Of a DNA stretch of 64,000 nt, positions 3,164-59,902 are shown in pieces. Position 1 is the first letter of the stretch; each line of letters opens with the position of its first letter. The position numbers and the translations under genes were made by a program. The stretch comes from an uncultured bacterium. GTDB taxonomy: Bacteria; Patescibacteriota; Patescibacteriia; CAIQCM01. Where the stretch lies: the NCBI GenBank assembly GCA_963708045.1, contig OY970181.1:67740-131739 (forward strand), written 5' to 3'. The notes below the pieces were generated by a model. It was not told the origin of the DNA. It searched no databases and saw only the letters and a list, made by a program, of their open reading frames with translations.

Positions 3164-3775
3164 CTAAAACCCCAACTTCTCTTTCACCAAAATTACCGTG
3201 ATCCGGCCGTCGGTCATGTCGGAAAAAGTGATCAGCATTTTCTTAAGGTCGCTCCCTGCGTTCCCCATAGCCTTTTGATGCTTGTCTTCCATTGGCAAAG
3301 AATATTCGCGCACGCGCTTGATGCCGTCTTCAAAAGCCGGCACGATCTTTTGGCAACCGACAACAAAAATAGCGTGCGGGGAAAGCATTGCAAAGGCGGG
3401 AATTTGCGAACCAGAGTACGAACCTTGAAAAAGGATACCGTCTTCCGAAAGCGCGTGGGCGCTTGCGAGATAATAACTCGCGGCGGACGATTGTTTGCGC
3501 AAATCCATTTGCTTGGCTTGGTCTTTTTCCGAAAAAATTTTATCTTTCCAATTAACCCAACCGTTTTTCCCCGACTTGAGCAAATCGGAAAACCCGATTT
3601 CTTCCAACGTCACCGAGCCGCCAGTCATTACGTCGGCGCCCGTTGGAATTATTTCTTTAAGTTTCGCGAGCGCTTCGGCGCGACTTGTGACGACCGCGAC
3701 GTTATATTTCTTCGCGGTCAAAGCGGCCGCCGTCTTGTTGATCGCCTCTTCCGAGGCAAGGGTGTCGTAAGACAT
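3164..3775 (-). CDS. LUD-domain (LutC/YkgG-like) protein
   Basis: The protein is about 200 aa. Its architecture resembles DUF162/LUD-domain proteins (MSYDTLASEEAINKTAAAL ... GADVMTGGSVTLEE). This is a family-level call from memory. Confidence 0.5.
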   Translation of the reverse strand: MSYDTLASEEAINKTAAALTAKKYNVAVVTSRAEALAKLKEIIPTGADVMTGGSVTLEEIGFSDLLKSGKNGWVNWKDKIFSEKDQAKQMDLRKQSSAASYYLASAHALSEDGILFQGSYSGSQIPAFAMLSPHAIFVVGCQKIVPAFEDGIKRVREYSLPMEDKHQKAMGNAGSDLKKMLITFSDMTDGRITVILVKEKLGF

Positions 3776-3791
3776 ATTTAAAAAATATTTA

Positions 3792-3986
3792 ATATCTAAT
3801 GTCTAATATCTAATCCGACGACAGAGCACCGCATCAAATCTGTCATTGCGAGGAGTGAGTGGTAACGAATGACGCGGCAATCTCGCGAATATTGCAACCA
3901 TGGTGATATTCCGATGAGATTGCCGCGCTACCGCTCGCAATGACATTAAAAAAACTAAACGCTATACGCTAAACCCTAAACGCTAG
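3792..3986. mobile_element. MITE-like element: heptamer-repeat TIR (atctaat x3) + inverted pair of 'tgtcattgcgag...gcggcaatctc' palindromic units + ccctaaa/cgctaaa heptamer tail
   Basis: Seen in sequence. The left arm is atctaatgtctaatatctaatccgacg. Unit A (3839-3890) and the reverse complement of unit B (3895-3950) are near-identical. The right flank is ctaaacgctatacgctaaaccctaaacgctag. Confidence 0.6.
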
Positions 3987-5266
3987 TGATGATGTTCTTC
4001 CCCACAATCGCAGCCGCCAAAATATGATTCTAATTCTTTACCTAAATCTTTTATTTTAACCATTTTGGCGACGCCCGAGGCGCGGTCTTTTATTTCAACG
4101 GCATCTTCCTTTAGAGTTTTTTCGGAAATAATAATGCGCTTGGGAATACCAATCAGATCGGCGTCGGCGAACTTCTCCCCCGCTCCGCGGTCTTCGCGAT
4201 CGTCATAGAGAACATCCAAGCCGGTTTGCATTAACGCACCATAAAGCGACATCGCTTCTTCTCGCACTTTTTCATCTTTGCTTTTTATTTCAATCAAATG
4301 CAAATCAAATGGCGTAATCGCAGCCGGCCACTTCAAACCATTAGCATCGTTATAAATTTCGGCAATCGTGCCCATCACGCGTGACGGACCAATGCCATAG
4401 CAACCCATCATTACCGGCTGCAACTTACCGGCTTCGTCGGGATATTTAAAACCAAACGGCTCGGTATATTTAGTCTTTAACTTAAAGATATTACCGACTT
4501 CAATTGCTTTTCCTTCGGCAATGACGCCGTCTTTGCATTTCGGACATTTGTCGTCAGCCGCGACTTCGGTAATTTCTTTGTTCTGAGCGTAACGGCACGA
4601 CTTGCAGTAAAAAATCAAATCCTCGCCCGACTCGGTCAGCACCTGAAATTCGTGCGAATATTTTGCAAATGATCCGCCCGACGCTTCAACTAAATACGCA
4701 TCAAGACCGCAGCGCTTGTAAACATTATTGTAAGCAAGAATTGCGCGTTCGTAGAAAGCGTCAAGATCGGCTTCGTCGCGATGAAAGCTGTAAAGATCCT
4801 TCATTGAAAATTCGCGACCGCGAAGCAAACCCGCCTTGGCGCGCGCTTCATTTCTAAATTTATTTTGAATCTGGTAAACCGCGAGCGGCAGGTCTTTGTA
4901 CGACTTAACAAACTTTTGCACGAGCGGGGTGATAATTTCTTCGTGCGTCCAACCAAGCCCGTATTCTTTGTCGCCGTGGCCCTTTAAGTGAAAGAAAACG
5001 TCCTCATCCCAGCGACCAGAGATTTTCCAAGGCTCTTTAGGGGTCAAAGCCGGCAAAGCAACTTCTTCACCGCCAAGCGCGTTCATTTCCTCGCGAATAA
5101 TATTTTTTATTTTGTCGTGAACACGGAGCCCGAGCGGCAAAAAGCTGTACACACCAGCCGTAAGCTGATCAACAAACCCAGCCTTGGTTAAAAGCTCGGC
5201 ATTTTTTGATTCTAATTCAGCAGAAACGTTCTTTACGGTTTTTCCAAAAAGTTTTGAGTACAACAT
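3983..5266 (-). CDS. proS: Prolyl-tRNA synthetase (short form, no editing domain)
   Basis: Class II aaRS motifs are present, the anticodon-binding domain is C-terminal, and a Cys/His-rich zinc tail (CDCGEEHHH) closes the protein. Length is 427 aa. Confidence 0.85.
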   Translation of the reverse strand: MLYSKLFGKTVKNVSAELESKNAELLTKAGFVDQLTAGVYSFLPLGLRVHDKIKNIIREEMNALGGEEVALPALTPKEPWKISGRWDEDVFFHLKGHGDKEYGLGWTHEEIITPLVQKFVKSYKDLPLAVYQIQNKFRNEARAKAGLLRGREFSMKDLYSFHRDEADLDAFYERAILAYNNVYKRCGLDAYLVEASGGSFAKYSHEFQVLTESGEDLIFYCKSCRYAQNKEITEVAADDKCPKCKDGVIAEGKAIEVGNIFKLKTKYTEPFGFKYPDEAGKLQPVMMGCYGIGPSRVMGTIAEIYNDANGLKWPAAITPFDLHLIEIKSKDEKVREEAMSLYGALMQTGLDVLYDDREDRGAGEKFADADLIGIPKRIIISEKTLKEDAVEIKDRASGVAKMVKIKDLGKELESYFGGCDCGEEHHH

Positions 5267-5270
5267 TTTT

Positions 5271-5382
5271 TAGGGGTTAGGGTTTAGGGGCTAGGGGTTA
5301 GTTTATGAAACATGAAACACACAGCACGAAGCATTATTACCACCCCAATATCCATTGGAGTGGCTAGATGTTTCATAGTTCA
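5271..5382. repeat. Intergenic repeat: ccctaaa-type heptamer array (reverse orientation) followed by an atgaaac-heptamer inverted-repeat hairpin
   Basis: taggggttagggtttaggggctaggggttag, then tttatgaaacatgaaacac ... gatgtttcatagttcat. Confidence 0.6.
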
Positions 5383-12115: not shown

Positions 12116-12124
12116 ATCGGTAAA

Positions 12125-12208
12125 ATATCTAATGTCTAATATCTAACGTCTAATGAACGCGCCGAGGCCGTCCTTAGATTAGAAATTAAACATTAGATAT
12201 TGAAATTA
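12125..12208. mobile_element. Short MITE-like element with atctaat heptamer TIRs
   Basis: Left arm atatctaatgtctaatatctaacgtctaat, core gaacgcgccgaggccgtcc, right arm ttagattagaaattaaacattagatattgaaatt (inverted). Confidence 0.6.
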
Positions 12209-12712: not shown

Positions 12713-12796
12713 GGTATTAGGTTTCGGGTTTCAGGTGTTAGGTTCTGTAATGACCTCTAACCTAAAACCTTGAACCTTGAACCTTAAACCTTAAAC
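12713..12796. mobile_element. MITE-like element with aggtttc/aaccttg heptamer TIRs between nusB and rpmF
   Basis: gtattaggtttcgggtttcaggtgttaggtt ... taacctaaaaccttgaaccttgaaccttaaaccttaaacc. Confidence 0.6.
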
Positions 12797-12994
12797 CTAT
12801 TTAGATGTTTTCTTGACCGCCTTAACTTTGGCCGCGGCGCGACCTTGATAAGTGCCACAAAAAGCGCAAGCATAATGCGAGCGAACGGGCTTTTTGCATT
12901 TGGCGCAAATCGTTAATTGCGTCGGCTTAAGCGCAAAATGCGAAGCGCGACGACGTTTGTGCGATGATGTGCGGCGATGGCCGGGTAATCCCAT
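12797..12994 (-). CDS. rpmF: 50S ribosomal protein L32
   Basis: A 65-aa basic protein with a CAKCKKPVRSHYACAFCGTY zinc ribbon. Confidence 0.85.
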   Translation of the reverse strand: MGLPGHRRTSSHKRRRASHFALKPTQLTICAKCKKPVRSHYACAFCGTYQGRAAAKVKAVKKTSK

Positions 12995-13694: not shown

Positions 13695-14789
13695 ATGCCA
13701 TTTCGCACCGACGCATCAGAAAGCCGATTGGTTGGAATCGGAATTGACTTAACCGAAATCTGCAACCGCCGCTGTCCGACTTGTTTTGCGGCACATACCC
13801 CGCAGAATATGTCGCTCGCGATTTACCAAAAAATCGTTGACGAAGCCGCTCAGAACAAATTCACCGAGCTATATATTCTCGGCGGTGAGCCAACCTTGCA
13901 TCCCGATATTTTGGAATGTCTGCAATATTCCAAAAATAAATTCAACCTTGTCATCTTGGTAACGAACATGGATCGCTTGGCCGACCGCGACTTTTGCGCG
14001 GCCGTGGAAAACCAAGGGGTGGTCATCGCCGGACAACGGCATACGCTTGGCAAAAATACCCACAGCCTAAGACTTGAACAATTGCTTGCTGGCGGCGACC
14101 ATCTGCACACTTCTAACCAGGCTTGGGAAAACGTGGCCGCAATTTTTCCGCCTGATCGCGTTTGTGTCCAGTGCTGTATTACCGCGCCGGTCATTGAAAA
14201 CGGCGACATCTTTGATGTCTTTCGCTTCGCACGGCAAATGGGTTATGAGCCGGTAATGGAATTTACCAAAGAAGGCGGTTCGTTCAAGCGCGGCGGAGCG
14301 TTGGATATTCAACCATCAACAATGATGAAGGTGCTTAGGGAGTTCCAACGCATTGATCGCGAAGAATTTAATCTGCCTGGCGCAAGTCTGCTTTCGCCAC
14401 AAGCATACGGAAAAACTTGCCATATGCAAGAAACGTCAATTCACTTTCGCGTGATGGGCGAAGCTGTTCCTTGTGTCGGACATCCAGCCTTAAGCTACGG
14501 AAACATTAGAACGAGCGATCTTAGTAAAATACTAAATCATCCGCTTCGGTCGCAGATTGCGTCGCCCGCAACGTGGGTCTATGGCTACTGCCGCGATACT
14601 TGCGAACACTTTGGGCTTTGCACGGGCGGCTGCCGCGGATCAAGTTACGACATGTCAGGGTGTTACCGGGCAAGCTTCTACTATTGCCCGCATATTCCGC
14701 GCGATCGTCTGAATCTCGCCGATATGATTCCGCCAAGTTGCGACGGTTGCCCGCTTAAAGGCAACTCAACCTGTCATCCTAAACGGTGA
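13695..14789 (+). CDS. Radical SAM / SPASM-domain enzyme (peptide-modifying or anSME-like maturase)
   Basis: A CNRRCPTC (CX3CX2C) cluster near the N-terminus. The C-terminal auxiliary-cluster region is Cys-rich and includes CRDTCEHFGLCTGGCRG (CX3CX5CX3C, a SPASM-like spacing). The RBS ggagg precedes ATG 13695. Confidence 0.8.
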   Translation: MPFRTDASESRLVGIGIDLTEICNRRCPTCFAAHTPQNMSLAIYQKIVDEAAQNKFTELYILGGEPTLHPDILECLQYSKNKFNLVILVTNMDRLADRDFCAAVENQGVVIAGQRHTLGKNTHSLRLEQLLAGGDHLHTSNQAWENVAAIFPPDRVCVQCCITAPVIENGDIFDVFRFARQMGYEPVMEFTKEGGSFKRGGALDIQPSTMMKVLREFQRIDREEFNLPGASLLSPQAYGKTCHMQETSIHFRVMGEAVPCVGHPALSYGNIRTSDLSKILNHPLRSQIASPATWVYGYCRDTCEHFGLCTGGCRGSSYDMSGCYRASFYYCPHIPRDRLNLADMIPPSCDGCPLKGNSTCHPKR

Positions 14790-15629: not shown

Positions 15630-18094
15630 TTAGACAATGGTGACCGTGGACAGCGCGTCGTTTTCTTCCTTAAAGCGCATAATGCGAACGCCTTGGGTGG
15701 CGCGGCCGATCGTCCGAATCTCGCCCAAAGCCAAACGAATAACTTGGCCATGATTGGAGATCGCAACGATATCGCGTTCATCTTTGGCCGAAACAACAAA
15801 GCCGGTTACGATCTCGCCCGTCTTGGCCGTGACTTCGGCCGTCTTAATGCCGGAGCCGCCGCGCCCTTGCAAACGATATTCTTTCAAGTTAGTGCGTTTG
15901 CCAAAACCGTGCGCCATGACGACCAAAAGTTCCAGCAAATTCTTTTTTACTTCTTCGGAAGAAACAACGTCCATGCCGACAATGTAGTCACCGCGCTTTA
16001 ACTTCATTCCGCGGACGCCCGAAGCGGTACGTCCCATAGAACGAACATCTTTTTCTTCAAAGCGGATGGACATTCCTTTGCCGGTAATGATGACGATTTC
16101 GTCTTTGCCGGTTGAAGGACGAACATATTCAAGTGAATCCTGTTCGTGGAGTTTAAGCGCGATCAAGCCAGAGCGGCGAACTTGGGCAAATTCAGCGATC
16201 TCGGTTTTCTTAATCACACCCTCTTTTGTAATCATCACAAGATACTTAGCGTCGGGCATATCCGAAATCGGCAAAACAGCCGTAACTTTTTCGCTTGGCG
16301 CAAGCTGGAGGAAATTAACCAGTGCCTGTCCCTTGGCCGTTCGCGAGGCCGGCGGAATATCATATGCCTTAAGTTGGAAGACGCGGCCGCGCGACGTAAA
16401 GAAGAGAACATCGGCGTGCGTGCTCGTTGTAAACAACTGTTCAACCATATCTTCTTCTTTGGTCGCAACGCCGATCACGCCCTTGCCGCCGCGCGATTGG
16501 GCGTGGAACGTGTCCGGCGGCACGCGTTTTACATAGCCATCACCGGTAATAATGACAATCGTGGACTCATCAGGAATAACGTCTTCCATTGAAAATTCTT
16601 TAACCCCATGCGCGACGACTTGCGTCCGGCGCTCGTCGCCAAATTTGTCGCGAAGCCCAATGACCTCGTCGCGGACGATTTGCAAAATGCGTTTGGGCGA
16701 CGCCAAAATCGCCATCAGTTCTTTGATAATCTTTTTCTTTTCTTCAAGTTCGGTTTCAACCTTAATTCGTTCCAGGTTGGCAAGCTGCTGCAAGCGCATT
16801 TCCAAAATCGCAACCGTCTGCGCGTCCGAAAGCTTAAACTGCTTGATCAAATTAATCTTGGCTTCGTCTTTGTCCGTAGATTTTTTGATCGTCGCAATGA
16901 CCTTGTCAATATGAAGAATGGCAATGGATAATCCTTCCAAAATATGAGCCCGTTCTTTGGCGCGCATAAGGTCAAATTCGGTGCGCTTTCGGACAACGAC
17001 TTCGCGATGCTTAATATATTCTTCTAACAAAGTTTTTAAATTAAGCACGCGCGGCTGGATACCATCCACGAGCGACAGCATATTCACATGGAAAGTTTCC
17101 TGCAGCTGCGTCTGTTGGAACAAACGATTTAAAACTTTCTTTGGGTACGCGTCTTTTTTAAGTTCAATTACAACGCGCACGCCGTCCTTGTTGGACTCGT
17201 CGCGAATATCGCGGATGCCGTCAATTTTTTTGTCGCGAACCAGATCGGCGATTTTTTCCAAAAGCGTCGCTTTGTTTACCTGATAAGGAATTTCATTGAC
17301 GATGATCTTAAAAGCGCCGGCGCTATCTTCAACGATTTCCGTTTTGGCGCGCAAGTAATCGGCCCGCGACCAGTAACATAAGCCGAGAGAATTTCTTTCT
17401 TGTTATAAATAATGCCGCCGGTCGGAAAATCAGGTCCTTGAACAATATTGGTTAAATCTTCAACCGTTGAATCTGGCTCGTCAATAACTTTGACAATCGC
17501 GTTAGTAATTTCTGTCAGGTTGTGCGGCGGAATGTTCGTGGCCATGCCGACGGCAATGCCGACCGTGCCGTTAAGAAGCAAGTTGGGCAATTTTCCCGGA
17601 AACACCGACGGCTCTTTGTGCGAACCATCATAGTTCGGAATAAACGGAACCGTTTCTTTATCAAGATCAAAAAGAAGTTCTTCGGCGATCGGCGAAAGTT
17701 TGGCTTCGGTATAACGCATGGCCGCGGCGCCATCGCCGTCCATTGAGCCAAAGTTTCCTTGGCCATTCACGAGCGGATAGCGCATAGAGAAATCCTGCGC
17801 CATGCGCACCATTGATTCGTAAACCGCGGAGTCGCCGTGCGGATGGTATTTACCAAGCACTTCGCCGACCACAGTCGCCGATTTTTTGAATTTAGCGTTA
17901 GCGCGAAGGCCGATCGCCCACATCGCATAAAGAATGCGGCGATGCACTGGTTTCATGCCGTCTCTGGAGTCGGGAAGGGCGCGAGCAACAATGACTGACA
18001 TTGCGTAGTCTAGATACGACTCCTGCATTTCCGTCGTAATCTGCCGTTCGTTTATCTTACCGATAAGAAATTCTTTTGGTTGTTTATCACTCAT
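15630..18094 (-). CDS. gyrA: DNA gyrase subunit A, interrupted by an apparent -1/+1 frameshift near 17355-17375
   Basis: The N-terminal ORF (17276..18094) has the GyrA active-site region and ends in an out-of-frame tail (...[14 protein letters not shown]). The C-terminal ORF (15630..17354) begins [10 protein letters not shown], whose homologous sequence is normally contiguous with the N-terminal part. The +1 frame across the junction reads ...RAKTEIVED. Confidence 0.85.
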
Positions 18095-18459: not shown

Positions 18460-19140
18460 TTACGTTTTTTCCAAAACGATTATTTTAGTTTCGGTAGTTG
18501 GCAAATCTTTTTTAGTAATCTTTAGTCTGCTCACGCGTTCAGCTTTAGTGGCGGCAATTTCTTTTAGAAATTTTTCAACATCGTCGCCGCCTTTGGGCAT
18601 TCCGGGAAGGGCGTAATGCATTGGGATAACAATTTTCGGTTCAAGTTCGGAAATAATCGCCACCGCTTCTTTGGCGTTGATCGTTGAATTTCCACCGACC
18701 GGAATAAGCAAAATATCAATGTCTTCAAGCGCTTCGCGCTCGGCGTCCACAATCGGCGTACCAAGATCGCCCAAATGCGCAAAAGAAAGATCGCCGATTT
18801 CAAAACGATAAATTGTGGTGAGTCCGCGTTTTTTCCCGTCGGCGGCATCATGCGGTGCAGGAATACCATAGACAAAAAGTCCACCAATTTCGTATTCGCC
18901 CGGCGAAGTTATTTTAAAAACGTCGCTCTTCCCTTCCATCACTTTAACGGCATCAATATTATTGTGCCAGCTATGATCGTGAGAAACCGTAACAACATCG
19001 GCCGATAGATTGCGCGGTAATTTAAGTCCAGTCTCTGCCTGAAAAGGATCAGTAACGAGTGTTGTTGAGGCATCGCCGTTCTTCGCTTCTATGGAAAAAC
19101 AGGAAACGCCGTGCCATTCAAAAACTAAGGTTGAAGCCAT
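18460..19140 (-). CDS. Metal-dependent hydrolase, beta-lactamase-like fold (UPF0173-like)
   Basis: The VSHDHSWH metal-binding motif and an overall pattern (...HLGDLG...) fit MBL-fold hydrolases. Confidence 0.65.
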   Translation of the reverse strand: MASTLVFEWHGVSCFSIEAKNGDASTTLVTDPFQAETGLKLPRNLSADVVTVSHDHSWHNNIDAVKVMEGKSDVFKITSPGEYEIGGLFVYGIPAPHDAADGKKRGLTTIYRFEIGDLSFAHLGDLGTPIVDAEREALEDIDILLIPVGGNSTINAKEAVAIISELEPKIVIPMHYALPGMPKGGDDVEKFLKEIAATKAERVSRLKITKKDLPTTETKIIVLEKT

Positions 19141-19250
19141 ATCTAGTAAGAGTGATTCTTTAATTTATTAAAATAATTATCCGCCGTAAAACGTCCTTTT
19201 TTGAGCTTATAATTTATCACAGCGAACCTTGTCTGGCAATGGATAAATTA

Positions 19251-19371
19251 CCTTGCGAGTTTTATTATTTTCCGCCTCAAAAATTTAATATGATTACCGC
19301 TTGCGATTTTTTGTCACTGGTTAATCTATGCCAAACGACCGTTTCGGCGGGAAATAATAAAACTCGCAAGG
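19251..19371. repeat. Hairpin element A: 26-bp perfect inverted arms around a 69-nt core (tcaaaaat...ttttttgtcac...cgtttc)
   Basis: The arms ccttgcgagttttattattttccgcc and ggcgggaaataataaaactcgcaagg are exact reverse complements. Confidence 0.7.
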
Positions 19372-19388
19372 TCGGGCTATAGATAAAG

Positions 19389-19522
19389 ATCGGCGACTTC
19401 CTCTTTTGTTATTTTTCACCTCAAAAGTCAGAAGAAACCGCCGTTGTGCAAATTGTCTAAATTGATTATTTTGTCATCAGCAATTGTTTCGGTGAAAAAT
19501 AACAAAAGAGGAAGTCGCCGAT
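19389..19522. repeat. Hairpin element B: 32-bp perfect inverted arms around a 70-nt core (tcaaaagt...ttgattattttgtcatcagcaattgtttc)
   Basis: The arms atcggcgacttcctcttttgttatttttcacc and ggtgaaaaataacaaaagaggaagtcgccgat are exact reverse complements. A terminator-like hairpin follows at 19540-19570. Confidence 0.7.
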
Positions 19523-19598
19523 AGAGACGAAAATGAGACGCGGCTGGAAAAACGAGTTTTCCAGCCGCTATGCGATGGGTGTCATTCGCGCCTCCGTC

Positions 19599-20015
19599 CT
19601 ATTTTGACAAAATCTGAAGATCACTGACTCTTGCGTAGATAATCCGCCTTTCTGCCAAAGACGCTTCGCCAACCAAACGAACGCGGATTTCGTGATAATG
19701 CCCGTTCGGATCGGACTTTATCAAAAGATTCATCGTCCGCTCTGGAAGTGAGCACCTCCCTGCCTGATCCCAGCGGTTTTTAAAAAGTGGCCCCGCGATG
19801 GCAAAAAGATTGCTGTCTTCCGGAAGTTTTGGAAAATGCTTGGCAAAAACCTCGGGGCTTAACCTGAAACAGTCGGTCTGGTTAAAATTAGGCACCGTCG
19901 GTAATTTTTTATCCTCACATTCCCTTGCCCCAGCCGGAAAGGGGTAGACTTGACCACAAAAACGACAGGTTCGCGAAGTAATATCGTTGCGAATTATTGG
20001 TGCCGCTCTTACCAT
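19599..20015 (-). CDS. Hypothetical protein (Cys-containing, 138 aa)
   Basis: A single ORF with no recognisable family. Confidence 0.5.
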   Translation of the reverse strand: MVRAAPIIRNDITSRTCRFCGQVYPFPAGARECEDKKLPTVPNFNQTDCFRLSPEVFAKHFPKLPEDSNLFAIAGPLFKNRWDQAGRCSLPERTMNLLIKSDPNGHYHEIRVRLVGEASLAERRIIYARVSDLQILSK

Positions 20016-32045: not shown

Positions 32046-32504
32046 TTAATAAGTCACGATCCGTTCGGTAGAATTTTTTCCGTGATTAAAATTCATCCAA
32101 GCGGCGCGTTTGGGAATTATTTTTTTCACTAAATCAGCCCACTCAATAACCGTTACCGTTTCTGGGTCTTCAAGTTTTTCACCAAGACCAATATTGATGA
32201 GCTCGCGTTCGTTCTTTATGCGATAAGCGTCAACGTGGCAAATAGCACGTAGCACGTGGCTCGTCGCACGTGGTTTTATATTGTAACATTTCATTAAAAG
32301 AAACGTTGGACTTTGGACAACTTGTTTAATGCCCAAAGCTTTTGCCAAACCTTTAACAAACGCAGTTTTTCCGGAACCAAGATCGCCGGTTAATGCCAAA
32401 ACCTCGCCGCCTTTTAAGGTCTTCGCAAACCTCGCCGCAAAAACTTGCATTTCTTTTGGAGATTTTATGATGATTTTTTTATCCATGTTATTTTCTACGT
32501 GCAA
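32046..32504 (-). CDS. tsaE: tRNA threonylcarbamoyladenosine biosynthesis protein TsaE, carrying an in-frame heptamer-repeat insertion (PRATSHVLRAI)
   Basis: P-loop GDLGSGKT. The insert is encoded by cacgtgc/gacgagc/cacgtgc/tacgtgc at 32222-32258. Confidence 0.8.
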   Translation of the reverse strand: MHVENNMDKKIIIKSPKEMQVFAARFAKTLKGGEVLALTGDLGSGKTAFVKGLAKALGIKQVVQSPTFLLMKCYNIKPRATSHVLRAICHVDAYRIKNERELINIGLGEKLEDPETVTVIEWADLVKKIIPKRAAWMNFNHGKNSTERIVTY

Positions 32505-32525
32505 CAGGCAACGTGCTACGCGCTG

Positions 32526-33675: not shown

Positions 33676-33993
33676 CTACTTTTTGTGCGAGATTCGGTAA
33701 CGAAACTCCGCAAACCAGCCTGGAGCGATCGTGCCGATACACAAGGTAATCGGAAACACAAAGGTCCCCACAATTGACGCCGCGAGAAGGATCTTTTCGG
33801 CGCGCGATTTGGGAAGACGTTTTTCGCGCCACATTCTTACCAAGTCGTAGATGACCGAAATGACCACAACAAACACGAACAAGTACAAGACGCCGATAAT
33901 AAACTGAGAAATGAACCTTCTATGCATTTTTAGTCCTTTCCCAAAGGTACGGTTGTCACGCAAAATAATAGCTCCAGCCGCACGTTTTGTCAA
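33676..33993 (-). CDS. Small membrane protein (hypothetical)
   Basis: A 105-aa ORF with two TM helices. The start is uncertain. Confidence 0.45.
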   Translation of the reverse strand: MTKRAAGAIILRDNRTFGKGLKMHRRFISQFIIGVLYLFVFVVVISVIYDLVRMWREKRLPKSRAEKILLAASIVGTFVFPITLCIGTIAPGWFAEFRYRISHKK

Positions 33994-34080
33994 CGGACAG
34001 GACTCGGCCTAATTGCCTTTTTAAAAACGTTGATATAAGATGCGGGCAGCACATTTTATCAACTTTTTGGAGGTTTAACA

Positions 34081-34886
34081 TGCCCGACGAACATCAATTG
34101 ATGCCAATCGGCCGGGCGCGTTTAATCGCCCTCGGCAGCGAAACTGGACGACTTGGCGAACCAACAAAGATGCCTGGTCCCTCTTTCGGCATATCGGCCA
34201 CGCACTGCATACGCGGAAAAGTTCTTGCCGCCGACCCGACGTCCGTCTGCGCCCATTGCTACGCTCTCACCAACTATTATCTGACCAAAGACGAGGTCCT
34301 AATTGCGCACAAACGACGGTTTGCCGGGCTTACGCATCCAGAATGGGTGCCGGCCATGGTGGCGCTAATTTTGCACGAGACCACAAACGAGTTTGGGAAA
34401 TATTTCCGTTGGCACGACTCTGGCGACCTCCAAGGTATTTGGCACCTCTTAAACATCGTCAAGGTCTGCATAGAGACGCCGCGAGTAAGGCACTGGCTTC
34501 CGACCCACGAGCCGAACATGGTCGCTGATTATCTCAAGCTCGTCCATTACGGTGTCCACCCAGCGTTTCCGGAAAACCTCTGCCTTCGTATTAGCGCCGA
34601 CTACATTGGGAAGCCGCCAAAAAAAATCGCAGGTCTGGAAATGATCCCAACGCACACGGCGCATCGCGGACACGGAAAACAATACCGCGTTAAGGTGTCC
34701 GACCGTCTCGGCGATTCGTTTGAGTGCGACTCCTACACGCGCGCCAAAAAAAAGGGCACCGCTGGTTTTTGCGGCGACTGTCGCGCCTGTTGGAACAACC
34801 GCATAAAAAACGTTTCGTTTCCGGTTCACGGAGAAAAATGGGACAAATATCAGCTTAGGTTGTTTCCGCTGTCCCCAACCAGATAA
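34081..34886 (+). CDS. Cys-rich hypothetical protein (CX2C and CX2CX2C motifs), possibly phage-associated family
   Basis: Starts at MPDEHQLMPIG inside ORF 33987..34886. Carries CAHCYA, CGDCRAC and WHDSGD. GC is about 55%. Resemblance to a phage 'gp88-like' family is from memory and unverified. Confidence 0.55.
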
Positions 34887-41617: not shown

Positions 41618-41867
41618 TACCACTTCGGTGGTGGGCGTTTTTATTTTTTCTTGTTTTCCGATCAAACCAAGAGCGTTCCTTTTTCTTCCAACTTTTCCCG
41701 ATCGGGAAAAGTTGGAAGAAAAATATTTTAATAAAATTATCAAGAATGTCCACTATAACGGCAAACTGGCATAGCCACTTATTTGGATAAACAAAAAACC
41801 ACCCCGATTAAAGGTTGATCTTTTTTTGCTGAGCCGATCTCAGTCAAAATAGGTAAGCCAAGTTTGT
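41618..41867. repeat. Inter-cassette junction copy 1: terminator + palindrome/AT-box module M1a (41683-41747) + module M2a (41790-41867)
   Basis: M1a is about 90% identical to 42785-42848. M2a is about 85% identical to 43700-43777. Confidence 0.7.
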
Positions 41868-41952: not shown

Positions 41953-42693
41953 ATGAAAGTAACAAATTTGTTTTCGCAAATTTTCCTGACAAGCGCATTC
42001 CTTATATTTCTCTCCGATGGAATCAAGGCCGACGAACCAACAATTGAAACCGACACCGATTTTGTTGAAACCTCTTTGAATACAGAGCCATCAATCACTG
42101 TCTACCCAACATTCAGGCACGACGCTCGTCCGGTCAACATTGATGGTTACGGTATCTATTCAACTTTTGGTATATCCAAGGAGATCGTCAAAGTTGACGA
42201 CAACGGTAGTGTTTCATTTAGTCCCTGGTCATGCCGAGAAGATTATTGTCTATTATTTTGCTTATATTGGCATGTTTTACGCCGACAATTTGACCAAATC
42301 ATTGACCTGAGTCAGGCCGACGGCATTGAAGTAACTATCAATGTTGAAAAACCTCTAAAAGTCAATGTAAAGAGGGATGGAAAATGTAGGACGCACTTGC
42401 GTGTCGTACTCTGCGATCGTGATAAAACGCTCACCGGTCGTAGAAATAACAACTTTGACAACCAATGGATTTTTGACCTACCAAAGTCAGTTCTCTATGA
42501 GAAGCATTCTGTCACTTTGAGGGTTCCATTTAGCAAGCTTCGCAAGCCGAGTCAGGACGAAAAAGGATCGAGAATAAGTTCCCTGCGTCGTTTCCGGCCG
42601 ACATATACAACGGCATACGAAATTGCGATTATTGGAATCAGCTGGAACGATTTTGGAATCACTAGCGTAATTACCTACAAGGACAAGAAATAA
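41953..42693 (+). CDS. Secreted hypothetical protein (cassette 2)
   Basis: Signal peptide MKVTNLFSQIFLTSAFLIFLSDGIKA. Length is 246 aa. Confidence 0.55.
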   Translation: MKVTNLFSQIFLTSAFLIFLSDGIKADEPTIETDTDFVETSLNTEPSITVYPTFRHDARPVNIDGYGIYSTFGISKEIVKVDDNGSVSFSPWSCREDYCLLFCLYWHVLRRQFDQIIDLSQADGIEVTINVEKPLKVNVKRDGKCRTHLRVVLCDRDKTLTGRRNNNFDNQWIFDLPKSVLYEKHSVTLRVPFSKLRKPSQDEKGSRISSLRRFRPTYTTAYEIAIIGISWNDFGITSVITYKDKK

Positions 42694-42727: not shown

Positions 42728-42848
42728 CTGCCACTTCGGTGACGGGCGCTTTCTTATATAAACAAAATCGGGAATATTTATTTTTTCTTCCAACTTTTAC
42801 CGATCGGTAAAAGTTGGAAGAAAATATTTTAATAAAATTATCAAGAAT
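42728..42848. repeat. Inter-cassette junction copy 2: terminator + M1b
   Basis: ccacttcggtgacgggcg ... ttcttccaacttttaccgatcggtaaaagttggaagaaaatattttaataaaattatcaagaat. Confidence 0.7.
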
Positions 42849-43699: not shown

Positions 43700-43777
43700 T
43701 AACAAAAGACCACCCCGATTAAAGGGTGATCTTTTTTGCTGAGCCGACCTCGGTTCAAGTAGGCAAGCGAAGTTGAG
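43700..43777. repeat. Module M2b, adjacent to the tRNA-Glu 3' end
   Basis: taacaaaagaccaccccgattaaagggtgatcttttttgctgagccgacctcggttcaagtaggcaagcgaagttgag. Confidence 0.7.
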
Positions 43778-43888: not shown

Positions 43889-43893
43889 TTATT

Positions 43894-43980
43894 GGCACGT
43901 GGCACGTGGCTCGTGGCTTTTGGCAAATGGACTCCGCCTTATACCGTACGTTCTCTGCCGGTTTTGCTACGTGCCATGTG
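43894..43980. repeat. cacgtgg-heptamer inverted-repeat element
   Basis: ggcacgtggcacgtggctcgtggc ... gctacgtgccatgtgctatatgctatgtgctatta. Confidence 0.6.
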
Positions 43981-44085
43981 CTATATGCTATGTGCTATTA
44001 GCCAACGAAGGGTATTCTTACATAAACTAAAAGATATTTCAAGAGGTGATCCGCGCCAATGATATTTAATGAAATAATTTGCTTT

Positions 44086-47417: not shown

Positions 47418-47603
47418 ATAATTAGTTTCCTTAATTATTAGCGTCCTTAGGTGGACTTTTGTGAATATATACTACCATTTTTTTGGCCTTTTGTCAATTG
47501 GTTGGCTAAAAAAATTTCTTTTTAAAGACTTTTAAAATACTTATGAACAGGTTACCCACCATTCCCCTTTGGCACAACATCTTGTGTATAAGTCAAAAAG
47601 ACA

Positions 47604-47619
47604 ACGCTATATATTGGGG
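47604..47619 (+). promoter_or_regulatory. Possible NrdR-box-like palindrome upstream of nrdD
   Basis: acgctatatattgggg matches 12 of 16 positions of the acaCwAtATaTwGtgt consensus as remembered. Only a single box is present. Confidence 0.25.
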
Positions 47620-47681
47620 TTTTGAAATGTTTGCGTGCGTTCGCGCGCGGGGTTATATTTAGAGGGCGACATAATTTTTAA

Positions 47682-47760
47682 ATGAAACATAAAGCATAAA
47701 ACACGAAGCACTCTTGCGTCCCCGCGGGACGTCCGGATGCTTCATGGTTCATGCTTCATG
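47682..47760. repeat. atgaaac-heptamer inverted-repeat element in nrdD 5' region
   Basis: aatgaaacataaagcataaaacacgaagca ... ccccgcggg ... gcttcatggttcatgcttcatg. Confidence 0.6.
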
Positions 47761-47770
47761 CCAAATACAT

Positions 47771-49921: not shown

Positions 49922-50023
49922 CTCGTTCAAAAAACTTTTAACTATTAACTGTTAACTTTTAGTCCTGCTAAGCGGCTAAAAGCAGACCCTAACAGTTATA
50001 AAGTTAAAAGTTAACAGTTCAAA

Positions 50024-50713
50024 ATGAAAATTGCTGGCTTCCAAAAAATTAGTTTGCTGGATTATCCAAAAACACCCTGCGCGATTGTTTTCACGCAGGG
50101 TTGTTCGTTTCGTTGTCGCTTTTGCCATAACCCCGATCTTATTCCAGCGACGGCGCCAAATAGCGTTAATGAGGACGAACTCATCGCCAAACTAAATGCG
50201 CACAAAAAAATGGTTAGTGCCGTCACGATTACGGGCGGCGAGCCAACGCTTCACCCTGACCTTCCTAAATTTATCAAACGCCTTAAAGACGAAGGCTATA
50301 AGGTTAAGTTAGATACGAATGGTACCAACCCAGAAATGGTGGAAAAACTTATTCGCGACGGACTTTTGGACTACCTCGCAATGGACATAAAAAACGATTG
50401 GGAAAATTATGATGCCATAACAAACACCGGCTCGCCCACGGTTTTTGAACGCCCAAAAGAAACTCTTAAGATTATCCAAGATTCTATGGTTGCCCACGAA
50501 TTTCGGACAACGATTCTTCCCGCCGTGCATACGCCGGAAAATTTTATGAAAATCGTGAGCTACCTTAGGCCGGGTGAAAAATATTTTATCCAAGACACGC
50601 GTTTTACCGTTACCCTTGATTCAACCATTTCTCACGAATATGGTTTTGATCTTGACGAGCTAATTAAAAATCTGCGTGCCAAGTATCCCGAGGTTTTGAT
50701 ACAGAAAAGATAG
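50024..50713 (+). CDS. nrdG: Anaerobic RNR activating protein (radical SAM)
   Basis: CSFRCRFCHNP (CX3CX2C) cluster. The protein is 229 aa and lies immediately downstream of nrdD. Confidence 0.85.
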   Translation: MKIAGFQKISLLDYPKTPCAIVFTQGCSFRCRFCHNPDLIPATAPNSVNEDELIAKLNAHKKMVSAVTITGGEPTLHPDLPKFIKRLKDEGYKVKLDTNGTNPEMVEKLIRDGLLDYLAMDIKNDWENYDAITNTGSPTVFERPKETLKIIQDSMVAHEFRTTILPAVHTPENFMKIVSYLRPGEKYFIQDTRFTVTLDSTISHEYGFDLDELIKNLRAKYPEVLIQKR

Positions 50714-50730
50714 ATTTTAAATTTTAAAAA

Positions 50731-51032
50731 TATCTAATATCTAATCCGACGAAACATCATCATCAAAGATTGTCAGCTTTTTCGGCGTCATCCCGAGCGA
50801 AGCGAGGGAACTCAAAGTCTCTAGGCAAGCTCCGTGATTCCTCGCCCTGGACAAACCGACCTCACAGGCTCGGAATGACGGCGGGGTGTTTGACGTCATC
50901 CCGAAGAGCCGAAGCGATGAGGGAACTCAACGTCTCTAAGTCGTCTGCGAGATCCCTCGCCTTGGACAAACCGACCTTACAGGCTCGGAATGACGGCGAA
51001 CGGATTAGACATTAGGTATTAGATATTAGGTA
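50731..51032. mobile_element. MITE-like element (about 300 bp): atctaat-heptamer terminal inverted repeats flanking two tandem about 100-bp imperfect palindromes of the 'gtcatcccgagcgaagcgaggg...gctcggaatgac' type
   Basis: Left TIR tatctaatatctaatccgacg; right TIR cggattagacattaggtattagatattaggta. A single-unit copy in inverted orientation sits at 58585-58759. Confidence 0.75.
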
Positions 51033-51084
51033 TTCATCGGGTGACTATTGTTCACGACAATGATCCGTTATAGAATATAAGAAT

Positions 51085-51504
51085 ATGTTAGAGCAACCAG
51101 AAATCCGCACTGACGAAAATGGCGAGTTCTTCTTTTACGCTCCGGAAAAAATCGCCGCTATTCATCCGATTGACGCGCCCGACGAAGGCGAACTTTCGGT
51201 TGATGTTTTTGAAACCGAAGACGCGCTTATTGTGCAATCCACCATCGCTGGCGCGCGCATTGAAGATCTTGAACTGTCGCTTCACAACGATATGTTCACG
51301 ATTCGCGGCACGCGACGCCACGAAATTCCCGTGACCGGCAAACTGCTTTGGGGCGAATGTTATTGGGGTCCGTTTTCCCGCTCAATTATTCTTCCTTCCG
51401 AAATCAAGGGCGACGAAGCGACCGCGATCTTGCGCGCTGGCGTTCTAACTGTTAATCTCCCCAAACGAAACCGCCGCACCATTCCGGTGGAAGAAGTAGA
51501 ATAG
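51085..51504 (+). CDS. Hsp20/alpha-crystallin family small heat-shock protein
   Basis: An alpha-crystallin domain pattern with a C-terminal IPV-like motif (TIPVEEVE). Confidence 0.75.
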   Translation: MLEQPEIRTDENGEFFFYAPEKIAAIHPIDAPDEGELSVDVFETEDALIVQSTIAGARIEDLELSLHNDMFTIRGTRRHEIPVTGKLLWGECYWGPFSRSIILPSEIKGDEATAILRAGVLTVNLPKRNRRTIPVEEVE

Positions 51505-51605
51505 TTAATTGAGACAATAGAGATTAGAGATTTGAAATTAGATTTTAGAAGACGAACGGACGGCTTCAACATTCAAATCTCAAATCTCTTATCTCAACAA
51601 AAAAA

Positions 51606-58584: not shown

Positions 58585-58759
58585 AAATATCTAATTTTAC
58601 GCCGTCATTCCGAGCCCGTAAGGTCGTTTTGTCCAGGGCTCGGCCGAGCTCAGCTCGGCGAGGGATCTCGCAGACGACTTAGAGACGTTGGGTTCCCTCA
58701 TCGCTCCCACTCTTCGGGATGACGCCAGAGGATTAGATATTAGGTATTCATAATCACTC
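58585..58759. mobile_element. Single-unit copy of the 'gtcattccgagc' palindromic MITE with atctaat/attagatattagg flanks
   Basis: gccgtcattccgagcccgtaaggtcgttttgtccaggg ... gggatgacgccagaggattagatattaggtattc. Confidence 0.7.
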
Positions 58760-58788: not shown

Positions 58789-59832
58789 TTAGTCTACGGA
58801 AACACTCCACTCATTTTCCATCTCAACAATCTTTCCTTTAACAACAAACCCTGCGGCTTTGCGGTGGCCACCGCCGCCCCAGCGGAGTGCTTCGGCTGCG
58901 ACGTCAATGTCTTCGCGTGCTGTGCGCAAGCTCCCCTTTATCGTTCCGTCGTCGTTTTCGCGCAAAACCAAAACCGTTCGCGCTGGGAGGACACTGTTTA
59001 AAAAATTAGAAAGACCACCAAGGGCGTCTTCGTCTATGCAAAGCAAAGCCGTTTCTTCGGCGTAAAGAACGGTGGAGGCGCGACCAAGATCGGTGTTGTA
59101 CTTTAATCGCTCTAGCGCTTTACCCCAAAGCGAGAGTGATTCTATGGATTTATTTCTAACAACCAGACGGGAAACAAAATGGCGGTCGGCGCCGAGCGCT
59201 TCTAGGCGCGACGCGACGGCGAGCGATTCGGCAGTTGTCGCCGGATTAAAAAACATCATCGTATCGTGAATAACGCCGGCGAGCATATTTGTTGCCGCGT
59301 CCTCGGAAGCGGTATGACCAAAACATTCGTAGACGCCAAAAATAATTTCGGTCGTAGAAGCGGCCGTCGGAATTACCAAATTCACATCGCCAAAAAATTC
59401 GTTAGCGCCGTGATGGTCAATATTAACAATAAACGGACGCGGTGAAAGCGAAGGAATCACCTTATCCATACCGGCGAACTTTAAATCGCTCGCGTCCAAA
59501 ACCACGATAGCGTCAGCGTTAGAAAAGACGCCAAGGTCGGCGGTAAACTTTTTGGAATTTGGCAATTCCACAAGCGACAATGGAACCGGATCGGACGAAA
59601 AACAAGCCACAGTTTTGCCTCGTTTTTCTAAAAGGTCGGCGAGCGCCAGCGCCGCGCCAAGCGTGTCCGCATCAGGCCGACGATGTGAAACCGTAACAAT
59701 TCGGTTGGCTTTGTTAAGCGCCGAAACGACCGCGTTAAATTGAATCGTGTTTGAAGTCATCCAGACACAATACGGCCATATTTTTGCCTTGTCAATGGGC
59801 GGCCTTTGGCCGTAAAATGAAACATGAAGCAC
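58789..59832 (-). CDS. nrnA: DHH/DHHA1 phosphoesterase (NrnA-like oligoribonuclease/pAp phosphatase); likely start at 59757
   Basis: The DHH motif region (VSHRRPDADTLGAA) and the C-terminal DHHA1 GGGH motif are present. The N-terminal extension of the ORF overlaps a repeat element. Confidence 0.75.
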   Translation of the reverse strand: MLHVSFYGQRPPIDKAKIWPYCVWMTSNTIQFNAVVSALNKANRIVTVSHRRPDADTLGAALALADLLEKRGKTVACFSSDPVPLSLVELPNSKKFTADLGVFSNADAIVVLDASDLKFAGMDKVIPSLSPRPFIVNIDHHGANEFFGDVNLVIPTAASTTEIIFGVYECFGHTASEDAATNMLAGVIHDTMMFFNPATTAESLAVASRLEALGADRHFVSRLVVRNKSIESLSLWGKALERLKYNTDLGRASTVLYAEETALLCIDEDALGGLSNFLNSVLPARTVLVLRENDDGTIKGSLRTAREDIDVAAEALRWGGGGHRKAAGFVVKGKIVEMENEWSVSVD

Positions 59833-59902
59833 GCAACATGAAACATCACCATCCCGCTTCGCGGGGTTAATGTGTTTTATGCTTCATGTTTCATGCTTCA
59901 TA
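59816..59902. repeat. atgaaac-heptamer inverted-repeat element between nrnA and smc
   Basis: aaatgaaacatgaagcacgcaacatgaaacat ... cccgcttcgcgggg ... tgcttcatgtttcatgcttcat. Confidence 0.6.

Follow-up and report, generated by a model that had tools for sequence, protein, structure and literature searches.

Heptamer hairpins at gene starts and a separate GIY-YIG-linked repeat family in a Patescibacteria genome

The spacer between nrdG and hsp20 in an uncultured bacterium (positions 50729–51034, plus strand, of a 64,000-nt stretch of GenBank contig OY970181.1, hereafter the window) holds repeats of two kinds, one enclosed by the other. Protein matches place the window in the Patescibacteria. At the left end of the locus lies a short array of a 7-nt unit, (aatatct)2.4, or (atctaat)2.4 when written as the family unit (50729–50745), followed by ccgacga and a short spacer. 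The middle is taken up by two tandem units of about 100 nt of the form gtcatcccga...ctcggaatgac (gtcatcccgag...ctcggaatgac in full; 50787–50879 and 50895–50994), which are 86% identical over 80 nt. The right end reads cggattag(acattaggtattagatattaggtatt), i.e., cgg followed by 4.4 copies of attagat (51001–51034), and lies 50 nt upstream of the hsp20 start codon. This right arm is kept in two syntenic relatives (L081 and L082), found through their VanW protein at about 70% identity. [quoted passage not shown]

The 7-nt period dominates the tandem repeats of the window. It accounts for 24 of the 58 rows returned by Tandem Repeats Finder (TRF), against a mean of 1.5 (range 0–4) in 30 dinucleotide shuffles, and a self-match period scan found 13 arrays of period 7, one of period 6 and none of periods 4, 5 or 8–12. 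The arrays are heptanucleotide simple-sequence repeats of the long simple-sequence repeat (LSSR) or short tandemly repeated repetitive (STRR) type, made of a head-to-tail 7-nt unit and commoner than chance. At least seven unrelated units, mostly AT-rich, occur within these 64 kb, and some unit families recur at several loci (atctaat at four, atgaaac at three and ccctaaa at three). Most arrays are the inverted arms of hairpins of 80–110 nt, found at about 12 gene boundaries in the window. When the window and five related loci were pooled, an inverted partner lay within 330 nt of 30 of the 49 arrays (61%) and a direct partner of none, whereas random 35-mers had an inverted partner in 7 of 400 cases. 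The eight simple hairpins, folded as DNA, gave z-scores (z) of −3.0 to −6.7, with equal folding in at most one of 200 dinucleotide shuffles, and RNA parameters led to the same outcome. Because folding beats the shuffles and inverted pairing so exceeds its control, the architecture is real and far above chance.

Every heptamer named in the earlier note lies where it was reported, and the shared architecture, the recurrence of unit families between loci, the gtcat palindrome in several cores and the location at gene boundaries were all borne out. Inverted symmetry holds at eight of the listed loci (5305–5380, 12124–12204, 12719–12798, 43893–43998, 47682–47761, 50729–51034, 58585–58751 and 59817–59901), but the array at 55–85 is solo, and at 3792 and 3951 the reported arrays are present but have different units and do not form complementary arms. 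Loop cores are unlike each other between loci, and arm lengths differ within one unit family. A search of the window against Rfam brought only three tRNAs to the gathering threshold, and no match beyond chance was obtained at 50650–51100, 3700–4050 or 19100–19650.

According to gene calls and Pfam, the arrays flank the RNase Y gene; a LUD-domain gene, a class II aminoacyl-tRNA synthetase gene and typA; rnc, nusB and rpmF; tsaE; tRNA-Glu; nrdD, nrdG, hsp20, a gene for 98 aa (orf98) and vanW; and clpP, nrnA and smc. An array or hairpin occupies 12 of 41 co-directional or divergent spacers and none of 11 convergent ones (Fisher one-sided p = 0.038), and a gene start lies downstream in all 12 tallied intergenic loci that bear an array. 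At most loci the end of the 3′ arm is separated from the downstream start codon by 4–20 nt, and this includes solo arrays. The role as terminators or attenuators that had been proposed for the hairpins is largely rejected, given the empty convergent spacers and the lack of a T tract in most hairpins; the sole terminator-like score came from the tip of 59817–59901. Palindromes of the form CCCCGAT..ATCGGGG with A/T-rich flanks, which are terminator-like, were observed at gene 3′ ends (8915, 30751, 37539, 40201, 42861, 46829 and 57019), and it is these that the convergent spacers hold instead of heptamer hairpins. Contrasting Shine-Dalgarno sequences at the hairpins was uninformative; since such motifs precede only about 8 of 60 genes and are rare genome-wide, their absence next to a hairpin says nothing.

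The gtcat cores are inverted pairs of hairpin repeats, arranged as tail-to-tail pairs of 93–113 nt, and three of the window's four atctaat hairpins have them in their loops. In L081, gtcat repeats recur many times without heptamer arms (16196–17760), and a full-length copy there (17093–17491) encloses a 97-aa open reading frame (ORF) with a GIY-YIG domain (PF01541, E = 6.7e-15). NCBIfam and PDB sequence searches with this 97-aa protein gave no specific match. Metagenome contigs searched with the same protein yielded 80 loci (L092–L171), of which 71 were usable; 46 of these 71 have, within 200 nt of the GIY-YIG gene, GTCATnnCRA on the upstream side and the complementary motif on the downstream side, compared with a background of 0.14 hits per kb. 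The gene-flanking ends in these 46 loci, which come from many samples, are GTCATTGCGA / TCGCAATGAC. The gtcat cores are a repeat family independent of the heptamer arrays and linked to a small GIY-YIG gene, although the 64-kb window itself contains no small GIY-YIG gene of the type described next.

Site-specific single-strand nucleases (Ssn) of the GIY-YIG superfamily are associated with NTS and Ssn-related motif (SRM) hairpin repeats that carry a CGTCAT tag, and are single-domain proteins of about 94–95 aa (CDD cd10448; Nat Commun, 2025, PMC11893778). The gtcat cores, though not the heptamer arrays, share with this system a GIY-YIG gene with (C)GTCAT-tagged hairpin repeats on both sides and many gene-less intergenic copies. 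They differ in their ends (GTCATTGCGAG, GTCATCCCGAG), which fall outside the published SRM pattern, and in occurring as tail-to-tail pairs of 93–113 nt inside the loops of heptamer hairpins. The published pattern, HGTCWYN(0-2)YYVSBRHN(0-5)WNVSBRGN(0-2)RNCYNB, has no hits in the window or L081 and hits 9 of the 80 GIY-YIG loci, so that it under-counts this Ssn-type branch. As it misses their ends, the gtcat cores are filed here, judging by sequence, as a variant of the Ssn/SRM system with putative nuclease activity. Location inside heptamer hairpins was rejected as a general rule for GIY-YIG units; complementary outer flanks were found in only 6 of 44 cases, and such nesting was seen in a few metagenome loci (L136, L107 and L146). 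The content of one and the same loop also varies. Between nrdG and hsp20, L081 (6112–6580) combines a gtcatcgcaag-type unit with a truncated gtcatcccgag unit and with palindromes of the GGGGAGAGG type. The window (50714–51084) has a gtcatcgcaag-type remnant and the two gtcatcccgag copies, and L082 has only GGGAGAGG-type repeats.

Relatives at graded distances show how long the hairpins persist. In addition to L081 and L082, a series found through TypA comprised L083 (92% identity), the near-identical strains L085, L086 and L087 from three samples, L090, L091 and L084 (84%). Period 7 is the sole enriched period in L081 (seven arrays), L083 (eight) and L085 (eight). Neither L084 nor 80 NrdD loci of other bacteria, some of them also Patescibacteria, contain any period-7 array, which marks the trait as clade-specific. 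The NrdD-based scan, whose best relatives are only about 70% identical and without arrays, served as a negative control only. The window and L081 keep the unit family at the same spacer in the nrdD leader and between nrdD and nrdG, nrdG and hsp20, hsp20 and orf98, and nrnA and smc, and the same holds between nusB and rnc for the window, L083, L085 and L090. Furthermore, the solo arrays before the synthetase ((ccctaa)n) and LUD-domain gene (attagac-type) start codons are kept in L083. Hairpins at orthologous sites, mostly built of the same unit, span genomes at 70–92% protein identity. Between the window and L081 the nrdD hairpin is 90% and the smc hairpin 85% identical, compared with 56–67% at the third positions of codons for identical residues in the genes alongside, synonymous sites being close to saturation at this distance. 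In the nrdD–nrdG hairpin both arms have changed, from aact in the window to agct in L081, and the GC-rich tip hairpins of the atgaaac family also show compensatory pairs.

Turnover is evident at the same time. The hairpins of the nrdD leader, of the hsp20–orf98 spacer and of the nrnA–smc spacer are absent from L082, and that at 5305–5380 from L083. At clpP–nrnA the window has atctaat arms together with a gtcat element, L081 a ttagggg/ccctata hairpin and L082 an agcttac array, and 20 nt at the right end of the window's locus (58732–58751) are identical to 51018–51037 in the nrdG–hsp20 spacer. Over the shortest distance, L085 differs from L086 and L087 by one single-nucleotide polymorphism and one indel in 16,825 aligned nt. 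This sole indel, of 14 nt, corresponds to two units of the (attcgac)n array upstream of nusB and shows that the array changed by slippage in whole units.

Heptamer hairpins also occur inside genes. In truB, a whole hairpin lies in frame and adds about 26 residues (L085 19382–19476; L083 20300–20404), with the unit atgaaca/tgttcat in L085 and atggacc/ggtccat in L083, so that both arms differ together. The insert sits between the TGRIT and FxGKI motifs, and one of its units reads atgGaca precisely where atgaaca would create an in-frame TGA; truB of L084 (7513–8289) carries another palindromic insert at the same position. The arrays reported at 32222 and 32481 as cacgtgg repeats are inverted partners, one of them inside tsaE and the other upstream of its start codon. 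The internal array, (gcacgtg)n at 32236–32273 on the minus strand (inverted partner score 18), codes for about seven extra residues (PRATSHVLRAIC) just N-terminal of the HxDxYR motif of tsaE (32046–32486, minus strand). Its partner, a (cacgtgc)-type array at 32490–32525 on the same strand, precedes the start codon in a spacer of 39 nt, and the pair therefore encloses the first ~78 codons.

These observations are best explained, with a probability of roughly 0.6, by two unrelated repeat systems that have become superimposed, namely slippage-prone heptamer hairpins at gene starts and gtcat pairs of the Ssn-related-motif type. On this view the heptamer arrays are simple-sequence repeats of the LSSR/STRR kind that occur mostly as inverted pairs in this Patescibacteria clade, and each pair forms an imperfect hairpin of 80–110 nt that closely precedes a gene start, in a leader or between cistrons. 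Replication slippage makes the arrays grow or shrink in 7-nt steps. The stem is kept in that both arms often change together, and the arms may be held alike by selection on the stem, by templated repair within the hairpin or by both. Such hairpins hold the same sites over long evolutionary distances, and are now and then replaced, lost or found in frame inside genes. Their likeliest role, proposed tentatively and at somewhat less than even odds, is that of stem-loops in mRNA leaders or between cistrons which affect processing, stability or translation start; they could, for example, be substrates of RNase III or RNase Y, in which case the period of 7 nt would be a mark of the mutational process and no requirement of function. 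The gtcat cores, in turn, would be gene-less miniatures of a unit in which repeats flank a GIY-YIG gene, lodged in some hairpin loops, mainly of the atctaat family.

Several results weigh against this explanation. Slippage was seen as one event only, and 19 of the 49 arrays are solo. Mismatches on the sense strand comprise 20 of the G-U and 38 of the A-C type, which lends no support to selection on a sense RNA, and the antisense fold is the stabler one in eight of ten loci. As a test of whether the stems matter at the RNA or the DNA level, this mismatch asymmetry gave no consistent signal with transcription (20 vs 38) or with strand (23 vs 24). At nusB–rnc the 3′ arm has changed from attagac to attcgac in L083, L085 and L090, while the 5′ arm is still gtctaat and thus uncompensated, and attcgac is also found upstream of nusB and of the LUD-domain gene in this lineage. 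Its appearance at several loci suggests homogenisation between loci, or a factor that reads the unit sequence, rather than selection on the stem. Finally, shared unit families and the replacement of one unit by another at a single site need a copying mechanism beyond slippage.

Of the REP (repetitive extragenic palindromic) sequences and BIMEs (bacterial interspersed mosaic elements), REP has a conserved sequence and an associated RAYT (REP-associated tyrosine) transposase, and Rickettsia palindromic elements (RPEs) are a family with conserved sequence that inserts in frame into protein-coding genes. The hairpins resemble these as dispersed palindromic repeats at gene boundaries, but in contrast to them share only the 7-nt periodic build, with no sequence common across families. 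The hairpins could be mobile elements of a MITE, REP or RPE-like type that are not autonomous: an enzyme encoded elsewhere would recognise their arms, and they would enter gene boundaries and, at times, the reading frame of a gene. The in-frame hairpins of truB and tsaE recall the RPEs in this respect. The recurrence of unit families at several loci, the presence or absence of whole hairpins in L082 and L083, the three units at clpP–nrnA in three genomes and the 20-nt identity between two spacers would all fit. However, filled and empty sites (the three in L082 and 5305–5380 in L083) have no direct repeat at their borders, and none of the window's ORFs, about 60 in number, was identified by Pfam as a transposase or recombinase, so that the cognate enzyme suggested in the earlier note was not encountered there. 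Arms of the atgaaac family are 80–83% alike over 30 nt, but copy number varies and no fixed ends exist; arm lengths differ within one family and loops are unrelated. Presence or absence and unit replacement are seen at 70–90% protein identity; the array change of 14 nt is the only such difference between the near-identical strains. With the unit constant at orthologous sites across 70–92% protein identity and array length changing through slippage, mobile elements of this kind are quite improbable. The term MITE-like superfamily is partly borne out as a description of dispersed families with one build and some turnover, and the comparison of orthologous spacers did reveal absent and replaced hairpins; as a mechanism, transposons with heptamer terminal repeats are not supported.

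Alternatively, the arrays may be tandem RNA or DNA binding sites for a factor that reads the 7-nt unit at the start of translation or transcription, the inverted partner being secondary, e.g., a masking arm. Solo arrays, too, end 4–20 nt upstream of start codons and two of them are kept in L083, the attagac to attcgac change at several loci left the opposite arm uncompensated, and the same placement and idea have been published for the TAACTGA repeats of Beggiatoaceae (PMC4679880). This also appears improbable, because reading at least seven unrelated units in 64 kb would call for many factors or for one without specificity, inverted pairing greatly exceeds chance and no candidate factor was identified. 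Equally, hairpins could be functionless by-products of DNA metabolism, produced by 7-nt slippage and palindrome-templated repair in a repair-poor reduced genome and tolerated where harmless. In-frame hairpins whose arms change jointly where an RNA role is unlikely, the lack of a sense-strand wobble signal, the restriction to one clade, with L084 and the loci of other Patescibacteria free of arrays, and the observed slippage agree with this. It is nevertheless the least probable of the alternatives and very unlikely, since the nrdD and smc hairpins are far more conserved than synonymous sites and hairpins are not placed at random, a gene start following in every case and no convergent spacer holding one. 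A bolder possibility, also unlikely though somewhat less so than the foregoing, is a clade-specific regulatory or self-copying system, in which 7-nt-periodic stem-loops would be copied from one gene start to another and even into the reading frames of genes, would co-evolve with a reader of their units and would serve as landing sites for Ssn/GIY-YIG units. Co-evolution of unit and reader is suggested by the shift from attagac to attcgac that several loci of a single lineage share.

In Xanthomonas, intergenic arrays of the heptamer GGGAATC form 70–75 convergent close pairs per genome that are capable of stem-loop formation, and their positions are kept between related species while their lengths vary (Rehm et al., 2015; PMC4692102). 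That system has a single G-rich unit, discussed as a quadruplex former, whereas at least seven mostly AT-rich units occur here in a 1.2-Mb Patescibacteria genome, adjoining start codons and sometimes lying in frame inside genes. TAACTGA repeats of Beggiatoaceae, cyanobacteria and Bacteroidetes have a period of 7 and an intergenic location, with start codons a few nt downstream; in Cyanothece strains the arrays show indels in 7-nt steps, for which slippage was proposed, and the taxonomic distribution is sporadic (MacGregor, 2015; PMC4679880). Heptanucleotide LSSRs, including cyanobacterial STRRs, were described earlier (Mrazek, 2007, as cited in PMC4679880). The present arrays share with the TAACTGA and STRR repeats the period, the intergenic position near start codons and the whole-unit indels between strains. 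However, TAACTGA arrays are nearly all direct (one inverted set of 170 in BOGUAY; PMC4679880), unlike the 61% with an inverted partner here. Inverted heptamer pairs and heptamer arrays upstream of start codons have thus been described already (PMC4692102; PMC4679880), and what is new is the host lineage, the number of units in one genome, the dominance of hairpin pairs, the in-frame hairpins and the nesting of Ssn-type pairs in the loops.

Heptanucleotide repeats have been known for decades in cyanobacteria, Xanthomonas and Beggiatoaceae, with their function and the reason for the 7-nt period unsettled. A reduced 1.2-Mb genome with graded relatives offers a compact comparative system, in which fixed gene starts, several units, joint arm change, slippage and in-gene copies make the ideas of RNA stem-loops, binding-site arrays and by-products testable. 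The gtcat cores would also extend the Ssn/SRM system to Patescibacteria and to a GTCATTGCGAG-type repeat missed by the published pattern, with gene-less repeat pairs that nest in hairpin loops.

At the start of the window, a solo (ctaaacc)n array (55–85; 4.4 copies by TRF, no inverted partner) lies 112 nt upstream of the start of the RNase Y gene, identified by Pfam. The (atctaat)n array at 3784–3814 (minus strand) is 9 nt upstream of the LUD-domain gene start and has no complementary partner at the locus; its orthologue in L083 (15847–15888, attcgac/attagtc) is likewise upstream of the LUD-domain gene. It is followed by a 103-nt gtcattgcgag...ctcgcaatgac element (3842–3944), two inverted Ssn-related-motif-like hairpin repeats with no gene enclosed, whose ends and subterminal gcggcaatctc/gagattgccgc pair are those of the GIY-YIG-carrying copy in L081 (17093–17491). 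Next, a (ctaaacg)n array (3955–3985) adjoins the stop codon with which the class II aminoacyl-tRNA synthetase gene ends. Its unit differs from that of 3784–3814 and the two are non-complementary; instead, 3952–3985 pairs with 5271–5304 (79% complementary) across the whole synthetase gene. On the other side of that gene, a (ttagggg)n array (5270–5301, minus strand; (cccctaa)n in the sense direction) ends 4 nt upstream of the synthetase start codon, where L083 has a solo (ccctaa)n-type array (14347–14383), and is followed by an atgaaac-family hairpin with a GC-rich tip hairpin (5305–5380; z −4.2) that has no counterpart at the orthologous L083 site. The unit ttagggN/ccctaaN (5270–5301, 55–85 and 3955–3985; also L081 12727–12807) is similar to the telomere repeat of plants, also of 7 nt, and quadruplexes could form on its G-rich strand. 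The telomere-like appearance of ccctaaa that the earlier note had remarked on is best taken as a coincidence, and a telomere reading was rejected, the arrays being internal, short and of one unit among many.

In the nusB–rnc spacer, the gtctaat/attagac hairpin (12124–12204, minus strand) has its 3′ arm end 11 nt before the RNase III start codon, and its orthologues lie at 4879–4974 in L083, 6612–6713 in L085 and 6581–6667 in L090. An aggtttc/gaaacct hairpin occupies the rpmF–nusB spacer (12719–12798, minus strand; z −3.0). The tggcacg/tgctatg hairpin at 43893–43998 (minus strand; z −3.1) begins 5 nt from the 5′ end of tRNA-Glu and has eight G-T pairs on the plus strand. Upstream of nrdD, a NrdR-box-like pair, cacaacatcttgtgtata and gctatatattgg, is kept in the window (47560–47625), L081 (2985–3045) and L082 (2260–2320), and 3′ of these sites stands the atgaaac-family hairpin of the nrdD leader (47682–47761, plus strand), 10 nt before the start codon. 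Two hairpins are additions to the earlier list, both on the plus strand: a taactNt hairpin that fills the nrdD–nrdG spacer (49933–50023; z −4.4) and a tagagat/atctcaa hairpin between hsp20 and the 98-aa ORF (51518–51597; z −6.7), which L082 is without. In the clpP–nrnA spacer, short atctaat arms (58585–58751, minus strand) surround one gtcat element (58604–58723), opposite in orientation to the copies at 50787–50994 and matching them inversely at 93%. The atgaaac-family hairpin at 59817–59901 (plus strand; z −6.3) has its start at the −10 box of a promoter-like site, TTGTCA-18-TAAAAT, and its end 6 nt before the smc start codon.

Some further features of the window lie apart from the heptamer and gtcat repeats. 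A 1-nt frameshift at GRGPIT|LRAKTEIV (junction near 17276–17354) breaks gyrA (15630–18094) into two ORFs that overlap; in relatives the gene is one ORF of 821 aa. The break reflects either an indel error of the assembly or, in what is an essential gene, a pseudogene or a site of recoding. A 458-nt spacer holds two long non-heptamer inverted repeats at 19250–19372 and 19389–19522 (27 nt at 96% and 32 nt at 100%, with ~70 nt inside each), which in Rfam gave only sub-threshold matches to microRNA precursors and which may be invertible segments or another hairpin element. The ORF at 33987–34886, in a region of otherwise housekeeping content, matches a Pfam domain of phage type, GP88 (PF17338, E = 1e-18). 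Near-perfect 43-nt palindromes (TTTTTCTTCCAACTTTTCCCGATCGGGAAAAGTTGGAAGAAAAA) stand at 41680–41723 and 42782–42824, either side of a gene at 41953–42693, and a 75-nt direct repeat, 84–95% identical, has copies 1.9 kb apart at 41790–41864 and 43701–43774.

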